Source: a virus | Taxonomy: Duplodnaviria > Caudoviricetes | Reading direction: 5' to 3' (one strand) | DNA: 64,000 nt | Virus record (IMG/VR): IMGVR_UViG_3300036770_005357 | In this document: positions 17,636 to 19,428 of the stretch, piece after piece | How the letters are laid out: every line of letters starts with the position of its first letter | How positions within the stretch are numbered: position 1 is the stretch's first letter | Position numbers and translations under genes: made by a program | Notes under the pieces: generated by a model | What the model was told of the DNA's origin: nothing | What the model saw: the letters and a program-made list of their open reading frames with translations, nothing else | Database searches by the model: none

Positions 17636-19093
17636 TTATCCATGATAAGCTTCCTCACCATGTTCAGCAATATCTAACCCAACATTTTCTTCATCTTCAG
17701 TTGGTCTTAATCCTACAGTATACTTAACAATATATGTAATGATCAATGTGCCAATTAAAGAAAGTGCCAATGTTATACCAACAGCTTTAAGTTGTTCCCA
17801 AACAAGCGGTTGTAACAAACTGTCGGTAACATAATCTTTTAAGTTAGTAGCTAAATTAGCATTTGCACTGTTTCTTGCCAATACACCAGTCAATACAGCA
17901 CCCAATGTACCTCCTACAGCATGTACACCGAATGTATCCAATGCATCATCATATCCCAATTTAGGCTTTAACCAACTACAAGCGAAATAAGGAATTATAC
18001 CCGCTAAAATTCCTATAATAAATGCACCCGTCGTAGTAACGAAACCACATGCTGGTGTAATTACAACTAAACCAGCAACTGCTCCTGAACAAAATCCAAG
18101 AATACTTGGTTTCTTCTTAAAGATATATTCTATCATAGCCCACGTAAATGAAGCTACAGCCGCTGCAATAGTGGTTGTAACAAATGCTGTTGCTGCAATA
18201 CCGTCTGCTGCCAATGCTGACCCAGCATTAAATCCATACCAACCTACCCACAACATACCCGTGCCAATTGCGCATAATGTCATACTGTGTGGTGTAATTG
18301 GTTGTTTACCATATCCAATCCTTTTGCCTAATAATAAGCATAACAGTAACGCACTCCAACCACTACTCATATGTACAACAGTACCACCAGCAAAGTCTAT
18401 TGATTTGACTATGGCATCAGCGTTCCATACACCATTCATACCGCCATTGACACCCCATACCATGTGGGCCAATGGAAAATATACAATACACATCCAAAGT
18501 GCTGTAAATAACATTATTGCACTAAACTTCATTCTTTCAGCAATAGCACCTATAATAAGTGCTGGTGTAATTATTGCAAACATCATTTGGAATATAGCAA
18601 ATATATTGTGACTTATCCAATAAGCATAATTTGTGTTTGGAGATGTACCCACACCTTCAAAGAATGCAAATTTACCACTATATCCACACCACGGTCCCGT
18701 ACCATCTGCAAATACAGCACTATAACCAAATGCGTACCATAGTATAGTAACCAGTCCGGCTATACCAAAACATTGAGCCACAACACTCAACATATTCTTT
18801 CGTCTAACCAATCCACCGTAAAATAAGAATAAACCTGGTAATGTCATAAACAATACCAATGCTGAACTTATCATTTGAAATCCGTTATGACCAGGACCAG
18901 TGTTACTTGCAGCAACTGTTGTAAGACCTTCAGCGATTTTACCATCACCATCTTTAAGTGGTGCGGTTGGATCTGTGTTGCTTAAATAGGCTTCAATGCT
19001 ACCTACTCGTTGTTCAATTGTAGGAGTTGGTGCGTCTGCACCGAGTAACATTGTTGCGGTTAATAACATACATAATAATTTAATTAATCTCAT
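17636..19093 (-). CDS. amtB: ammonium transporter with N-terminal signal/extension
   Basis: [65 protein letters not shown] (both pore His and Phe gate residues present). Confidence 0.97.
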
Positions 19094-19428
19094 ATTGCAT
19101 CCTTTCCAGTTTCACTTGTTCTAATTCTAATAGCTTGTTCTACACCATAAACGAATATCTTACCGTCACCAATTTTGCCTGTCTTAGCTGTTTTAATGAT
19201 TGTATCAATAGCTTGAGAAAGCATTTCTTCTTCTACTACCAATTCAAGTTTAAGTTTGGGTAAAAAATCGACAGTATATTCACTGCCTCTGTAAAGTTCA
19301 GTATGACCTTTTTGCCTACCGAAACCTTTTACTTCACTTACTGTCATTCCTTGTACACCTATTTGTTGTAAGGCATCTTTTACCTCATCAAGTTTATAGG
19401 GCTTTATTATAGCTTCTATCTTCTTCAT
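19090..19428 (-). CDS. glnK: PII nitrogen regulatory protein
   Basis: 112 aa, [27 protein letters not shown] (Y51), [10 protein letters not shown]; AAAGGA RBS; overlaps the amtB start. Confidence 0.97.

Follow-up and report, generated by a model that had tools for sequence, protein, structure and literature searches.

The window analyzed here is the whole 64,000-nucleotide stretch of IMG/VR record IMGVR_UViG_3300036770_005357, and the feature under study is a pair of minus-strand genes, glnK and amtB (Table 1). The 112-residue product of glnK matched the Pfam family P-II (PF00543) over its full length (5e-34) and was colinear with PII proteins of the PDB across residues 1–112 (6e-50). The 485-residue product of amtB matched Ammonium_transp (PF00909) over profile positions 2–399 of 399 (8.5e-114) and the structure chains of E. 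coli AmtB over the whole chain (1e-91, residues 8–405); it carries an N-terminal signal peptide and a periplasmic extension typical of Verrucomicrobiota. A sequence-only reading had described a complete PII gene translationally coupled to a complete amtB gene and preceded by its own ribosome-binding site, and all three points were borne out: the open reading frames are exact and contain no frameshifts or stops, the stop codon of glnK overlaps the start codon of amtB in an ATGA motif, and an AAGGA motif stands 6 nt before the glnK ATG. Linkage to amtB, by which glnK is told from glnB, is provided by this overlapping junction. In the nearest bacterial relative (L016), the two genes are instead separated by a gap of 37 nt.

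Table 1. Positions of the glnK–amtB cassette, its signals, and other features of the window
Feature	Position	Strand	Basis
amtB, 485-aa Amt-family ammonium channel	17636..19093	-	Pfam PF00909, E. coli AmtB structures, residue alignment
glnK, 112-aa PII signal protein	19090..19428	-	Pfam PF00543, PDB PII proteins, residue alignment
ATGA overlap of glnK stop and amtB start (translational coupling)	19090..19093	-	Read from sequence
AAGGA ribosome-binding site, 6 nt 5′ of glnK ATG	19435..19439	-	Sequence; kept in L013 and L014
Repeats and palindrome upstream of glnK, with the 18-nt block	19460..19535	-	
Invariant 18-nt block, candidate promoter/operator	19518..19535	-	Invariant in window, L013, L014, and L015
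Inserted segment, approximate (amtB, glnK, about 150 nt of 5′ region)	17621..19584	.	Flank alignment with L118 and L120
Bidirectional terminator, G+C-rich stem-loop with A-/T-runs on each side	17587..17614	.	Scored on both strands
Sigma-70-like Metallophos promoter, TTGACA-17-TATAGT	19585..19613	+	11/12 consensus matches plus extended TG
133-aa open reading frame	17098..17499	+	
P-loop (APS-kinase-like) kinase	12131..12568		
cREC_REC "cyclic-phosphate processing" receiver domain	15994..16380		
Metallophosphoesterase (Metallophos)	19564..20394		
RNA ligase (PHA02142 OB + RNA_ligase)	21727..22734		
DNA ligase	23013..24110		
Three YopX-domain paralogues, small-ORF region	7421..7810, 8024..8452, 10972..11370	+	
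Homing endonuclease, within structural gene block	56141..57013		phrog_314, 6e-39
2768-aa open reading frame	30553..38859		
Four paralogues with a common C-terminal domain	42949..43674, 57448..58650, 58662..59357, 59665..60393		

Functional residues were compared in the E. coli numbering of 2NS1, where chain numbering equals mature numbering. AmtB possesses the Phe gate (E. coli F107 and F215, here F172 and F288), the twin pore histidines (H168 and H318, here H241 and H391), the periplasmic binding site (W148 and S219, here W213 and S292), and D160 (here D233), and the pore, gate, and binding residues were invariant among five phage and 80 bacterial copies. Only five of 202 strongly conserved AmtB columns were altered in any phage copy, every change being conservative, and the C-terminal region that docks GlnK is conserved as in cellular transporters. 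The T-loop of PII (residues 37–55) keeps R47, S49, and Y51, with I45L as the sole change from its relatives, while the residues for ATP/ADP and 2-oxoglutarate (B-loop TGxxGDGKIF, Q39, K58, and K90) all lie in invariant columns of the alignment; R47, S49, Y51, and the B-loop were also invariant against the bacterial relatives. The alignments and the PDB matches therefore uphold the earlier identification of Y51 and S49 in the T-loop and of both pore histidines and the Phe gate in AmtB.

The contig is viral, as had been supposed. The window encodes several giant tail-fiber and virion-structural proteins, the structural proteins being about 30–34% identical to marine myovirus counterparts, as well as ThyX, an RNA ligase, an ATP-dependent DNA ligase, a homing endonuclease, and YopX-domain proteins. 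All credible neighbor genes between 1 and 26.4 kb lie on the plus strand, with the cassette as the one credible minus-strand exception, so its described inversion relative to all neighbors holds. The proposed "early region" is plausible, judging from the small plus-strand open reading frames, the nucleotide-metabolism genes, and the sigma-70-like promoter of the next gene.

Sequence nearly identical to positions 16000–21000, whole or in part, was present in runs of 13 studies, mostly of freshwater, lake, river, and subsurface origin. Contigs from four runs, which belong to three studies besides the probable source, bridged the cassette junctions: run X8 (17411–17994 and 19358–21000), run X4 (17498–17749 and 19316–19583), run X5 (17553–17785 and 19286–19758), and run X9 (17555–17875). 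Moreover, three other assemblies (L013, L014, and L015) contained a PII–Amt pair whose AmtB was 85–86% identical to that of the window and which adjoined the same Metallophos gene; L013 also shares the cREC_REC neighborhood. Since both junctions were bridged and the same pair with the same neighbors recurred in these assemblies, a host chimera is excluded for practical purposes. A joint in run X5 that connects 16926 with 20886, leaving out 3959 nt and with them the cassette, was considered as a deletion variant and set aside as too weak, being single and of low depth with a shorter side of 21 nt.

Further window genes deserve mention. The kinase, cREC_REC, metallophosphoesterase, RNA ligase, and DNA ligase genes are syntenic in related phages and resemble a set for healing and sealing RNA (tRNA?) ends, possibly as a defense against anticodon nucleases of the host. 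The 2768-aa open reading frame contains about 18–29 repeated domains and matches virion-structural and tail-spike PHROGs (phrog_6002, phrog_23837, and phrog_4636). The four paralogues with a common C-terminal domain match "virion structural protein" families (phrog_8510 and phrog_24074) and are interleaved with the giant tail-fiber genes; they may be fiber tips or assembly chaperones.

The insertion site was defined using relatives that lack the cassette. Four loci (L118–L121) were located via the neighboring Metallophos protein, which is 63% identical. They have the gene order of the window, namely P-loop kinase, ThyX, a 215-aa ORF, cREC_REC, four small ORFs, a 131-aa ORF, Metallophos, three ORFs, RNA ligase, and DNA ligase, and no PII or Amt gene was found in any of the four. 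Their 131-aa ORF is 74% identical to the 133-aa ORF of the window. At the empty site of L118 and L120, the Metallophos promoter lies no more than about 15 nt beyond a terminator (CCGCCAA..TGGCGG with a T-run). Because both elements flank the cassette in the window, the insert can be delimited to approximately the segment given in Table 1, and its right edge is formed by the Metallophos promoter, a phage backbone element with an equivalent in L118 and L120.

The stem-loop downstream of amtB, previously assigned to the cassette as its bidirectional terminator, did score on both strands and is common to amtB and the plus-strand unit of the 133-aa ORF, with the stem kept and the loop altered in L013 and L014. 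The assignment to the cassette did not stand: the stem-loop is homologous to the empty-site terminator of L118 and L120 and so did not arrive with the cassette. By this homology, it is a pre-existing phage terminator that was co-opted to end amtB.

Between cREC_REC and Metallophos lies a flexible island (window 16328–19584, L013:4155–6651, L124:2612–6056) whose cargo varies among the phages. The window has the PII–Amt pair here, L013 has the pair plus genes for a methyltransferase and a carbamoyltransferase, L124 has two Methyltransf_24 genes, and L118–L121 have nothing. Cassette presence is patchy among related phages. The cassette bearers do not form one clade in the Metallophos tree; the window groups with the empty L118 and L120, while L013 and L015 fall in a clade (support 100) that includes the empty L124, and gene-by-gene identities agree with this grouping. 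The pattern could have arisen by a single gain and two or more losses, or by transfer among related phages. These two histories are left level because the divergence of the cassette resembles that of its flanks, the nucleotide identity/divergence figure being about 74% for the former and 71–77% for the latter. As close relatives live without it, the cassette is dispensable. An IMG/VR scan with the single Metallophos protein returned no match to close phage relatives, and INPHARED contained no close relative, its Amt matches being at most 45% identical and mostly from short records that lack annotation and may be fragments of host DNA.

The nearest AmtB sequences fell into two sets, a small group of 485-aa phage-type proteins (85–98% identity) and a large group of 494-aa cellular proteins (77–79%). 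Contigs of the cellular group reach hundreds of kilobases, and L016 from this group shows an ordinary bacterial setting with glnK–amtB close to glnA. In AmtB trees under LG+G4 (89 rows) and LG+C20 PMSF (43 rows), the five phage-type proteins formed one clade (SH-aLRT 100, stem 0.23–0.27), which was nested in both trees among sequences labeled Limisphaerales or Pedosphaera with a support of 99. These trees clearly point to Verrucomicrobiota of the Limisphaerales/Pedosphaeraceae type as the source of the cassette. With 112 columns, the PII tree did not resolve the placement, and monophyly of the phage PII proteins was neither rejected (AU 0.94) nor demonstrated. Since the phage has 33% G+C and the nearest donor-lineage genomes or loci 58–63%, the present host may belong to another lineage than the donor.

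The codon usage of the cassette is that of the phage. The GC3 values of its two genes (0.23 and 0.205) agree with the mean of 27 other window genes (0.205, sd 0.05), as expected from the A/T-ending codons remarked on before, and phage copies in general range from 0.19 to 0.24, versus 0.66–0.87 in the nearest bacterial copies. Between phage lineages (dS of at least 1), dN/dS was 0.06–0.10 for amtB and 0.055–0.14 for glnK, with a value of 0.08 for amtB in a bacterial pair used for comparison. On the strength of fully ameliorated codon use and low dN/dS, the cassette entered phages long ago and has stayed under purifying selection, in line with the long residence that had been proposed.

The region upstream of glnK differs from that of the bacterial operons. 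A sigma-54-type −24/−12 element, TGGCAY-N5-NTGCT, was found within 350 nt upstream of 53 of the 58 bacterial operons and of none of the four phage copies; control scans inside amtB gave 4/60 hits in sense and 1/60 in antisense orientation. Upstream of the window glnK, TGGCAC-N5-TTGCW had no match at up to two mismatches. Phage copies instead share an invariant 18-nt block, TTTTATGGTGAGCATTTT, followed by three TTATAC-type repeats, spaced by about 11 nt, and the palindrome ATGTTACAT. The block region is conserved though the flanking genes are only 50–77% identical, and the block itself matches neither the sigma-54 nor the strong sigma-70 consensus; no recognizable promoter was found for the cassette. 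The block was rejected as a phage-wide promoter because it is unique in the window. A search of Rfam in and around the cassette yielded no riboswitch or leader and only a sub-threshold sRNA match on the terminator. With the donor's sigma-54/NtrC-type promoter gone, expression is probably on the phage program and not on the host nitrogen-starvation response, and transcription would be uncoupled from the NtrC/RpoN starvation control of the donor.

A side result concerns the bacteria themselves. Verrucomicrobiota operons of the glnK–amtB or amtB–glnK type carry TGGCAY-N5-NTGCT almost uniformly, about 60–330 nt upstream (L016:7520–7535 and 52 other loci), which suggests phylum-wide control of nitrogen uptake genes by RpoN.

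The reading that we consider probable is that the cassette, captured from a bacterial host as an auxiliary unit, provides extra ammonium uptake through AmtB at a time set by the phage, gated by co-made GlnK. An ancestor of this large freshwater tailed phage would have captured the glnK–amtB operon of a Limisphaerales/Pedosphaeraceae-type bacterium into the flexible island, between the conserved 131–133-aa ORF and the metallophosphoesterase gene. Both genes are probably expressed on one transcript that starts in the 5′ region of the cassette and ends at the co-opted phage terminator. AmtB, with its signal peptide kept, would be inserted into the inner membrane of the host and increase ammonium uptake, and the extra nitrogen would help a very large phage to make its nucleotides and proteins. 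GlnK, co-translated with AmtB, is expected to sense ATP/ADP and 2-oxoglutarate and to plug the channel with its T-loop (R47) at nitrogen sufficiency, and host GlnD could free it from the channel by modifying Y51. GlnD (TIGR01693, above the curated cut-off) was present in three of four donor-lineage genomes and split into two frames in the fourth, so that a host from this lineage could plausibly modify Y51 with an enzyme of its own. As an intact, viral, and long-resident unit under purifying selection, the cassette is a credible auxiliary nitrogen-uptake module.

A bolder version of this reading, which we regard as possible but doubtful, is that the cassette was rewired, the phage-conserved 5′ element replacing the sigma-54/NtrC promoter and the faster-evolving GlnK serving as a private gate or as a decoy in the PII network. 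If so, an infected cell would take up ammonium whatever nitrogen status the host perceives.

The role of GlnK is also at issue in the strongest rival explanation, in which PII is the main payload and AmtB is secondary. Phage PII would then be a decoy or dominant regulator of the host PII network that falsifies nitrogen status, acting on NtrB, GlnE, other PII receptors, or the AmtB of the host, possibly via mixed trimers. Several observations fit. The sensing core of PII is fully conserved, PII dN is about twice AmtB dN in the window lineage, and 11 of the 17 substitutions specific to that lineage lie in surface helices alpha1 and alpha2, with I45L in the T-loop and none in the B-loop. Rare residues are also more numerous in PII of phages (19, 13, and 8) than of bacteria (5 and 2), on some viral contigs PII occurs without an Amt in the flanks examined, and competition with host PII was raised by Gazitua et al. 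(PMC8115048). Weighing against the preferred reading, the window GlnK has a long terminal branch (0.35 vs. a median of 0.07), which could indicate a changed role; its surface drift could reflect relaxed constraint toward other PII partners or adaptation. However, AmtB is perfectly intact and under selection at least as strong as that on PII, which would be needless for an accessory, and the tight ATGA coupling implies that GlnK and AmtB are made together as partners. For these reasons, we consider PII as the main payload unlikely.

The absence of the cassette from relatives with the same gene order, its patchy distribution, and its location in an island with changing cargo would also suit a neutral or decaying passenger (a "moron") of no use to the phage. 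Such a history is very improbable, since the reading frames are undamaged, dN/dS stays at 0.06–0.14 at a synonymous divergence of at least 1, and the functional residues were all kept in five diverged copies; full codon amelioration is slow, and an unused gene would have decayed meanwhile. Nothing directly favors the idea that AmtB was re-purposed for something other than uptake, such as ammonia export, pH control, sensing, or a membrane decoy against superinfection; the indirect points are that some Amt proteins act as sensors and that the N-terminal periplasmic extension is without known function. The transport machinery and the GlnK-docking region, however, are conserved exactly as in cellular transporters, so that re-purposing is hardly to be expected. 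Finally, a bacterial fragment mis-joined to a phage contig would agree with the opposite orientation and the slightly higher G+C (0.38 in amtB vs. 0.33), but it deserves practically no weight against the bridged junctions, the identical junctions in three independent assemblies of diverged relatives, a phage-like GC3 lower by about 0.5 than in any close bacterial copy, and the phage backbone elements on both flanks.

Uptake of ammonium under the control of the phage, the reading preferred here, can be set beside several known systems. The bacterial glnK–amtB operon and the AmtB–GlnK complex (E. coli, PDB 2NS1 and 2NUU) share with the window the gene order, the pore, gate, and T-loop residues, and the AmtB C-terminal region; unlike the bacterial operon, the phage copy lacks the donor sigma-54-type promoter, has had its GC3 re-cast to 0.2, and ends at a phage terminator. 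Cyanophage pstS is a phosphate-uptake auxiliary gene that has retained host-type Pho regulation. It follows the same logic, a host gene for acquiring a limiting element, but the element is another one and the window cassette is without a donor-type sigma-54 promoter.

Among eukaryotic viruses, Ostreococcus tauri virus RT-2011 also has a host-derived Amt, reported as functional in uptake (Monier et al. 2017, PNAS, as cited in PMC8115048); it is a eukaryote-type Amt of a giant virus and lacks a PII partner. Amts of the giant-virus type in IMG/VR share about 30% identity with that of the window.

The closest parallels come from marine phages. Roux et al. (2016, bioRxiv 10.1101/053090) reported 10 viral P-II genes from marine viromes, two clades of which adjoin amt, and concluded that viral P-II was acquired at least four times, "possibly" from Verrucomicrobia. 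Gazitua et al. (2021, PMC8115048) found amtB after glnK, with a predicted promoter and terminator, on three phage contigs (groups PII-1 and PII-4), the donors being Flavobacteriales-like (with an OmpL porin) and Gammaproteobacteria-like; they proposed uptake during infection along with competition with host PII. In our IMG/VR scan, Amt was directly downstream of PII in 13 of the 20 PII-bearing contigs, the Amts beside PII being only 25–45% identical to that of the window. In spot checks, the neighbors of other PII–Amt pairs were of the auxiliary type (a PstS-type binding protein, porin, and NDK), and no hallmark phage genes were found in the flanks examined. Two IMG/VR contigs (L115:4001–6672 and L116; 30% G+C, 43–172 kb) have PII–Amt followed by a BBP2/OmpL-like porin, a form that matches the PII–Amt–OmpL cassette of Gazitua et al. 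(2021). In the light of the two papers and the scan, phage glnK–amtB cassettes are a kind already known, and the rarity implied by the earlier view of viral amt and PII genes is not supported.

Existing beliefs about such phage genes are left unchanged by the window cassette. What is new is the definition of the insert by empty-site relatives together with the co-opted terminator, the loss of the sigma-54-type promoter, and the patchy presence. Because relatives with and without the cassette exist, the donor lineage is clear, amelioration is complete, and the starvation promoter was lost, the system is an unusually clean natural experiment and hence a good candidate for asking whether phage nutrient-uptake genes escape host regulation. 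Marine cassettes resemble that of the window in having a PII with Y51 directly before Amt on contigs with phage genes. In both the 2016 and the 2021 paper, the cassettes were given a predicted promoter and a downstream terminator, and a part in taking up ammonium for the infection was proposed. They differ in being Flavobacteriales-like, with an extra OmpL porin, or Gammaproteobacteria-like, whereas the window cassette is of freshwater and subsurface occurrence, Limisphaerales-derived, and devoid of a porin. It is the first that we found to be both freshwater and clearly Verrucomicrobiota-derived, and it extends phage glnK–amtB from marine settings with Bacteroidota- and Proteobacteria-type donors to freshwater and a donor from the Verrucomicrobiota.
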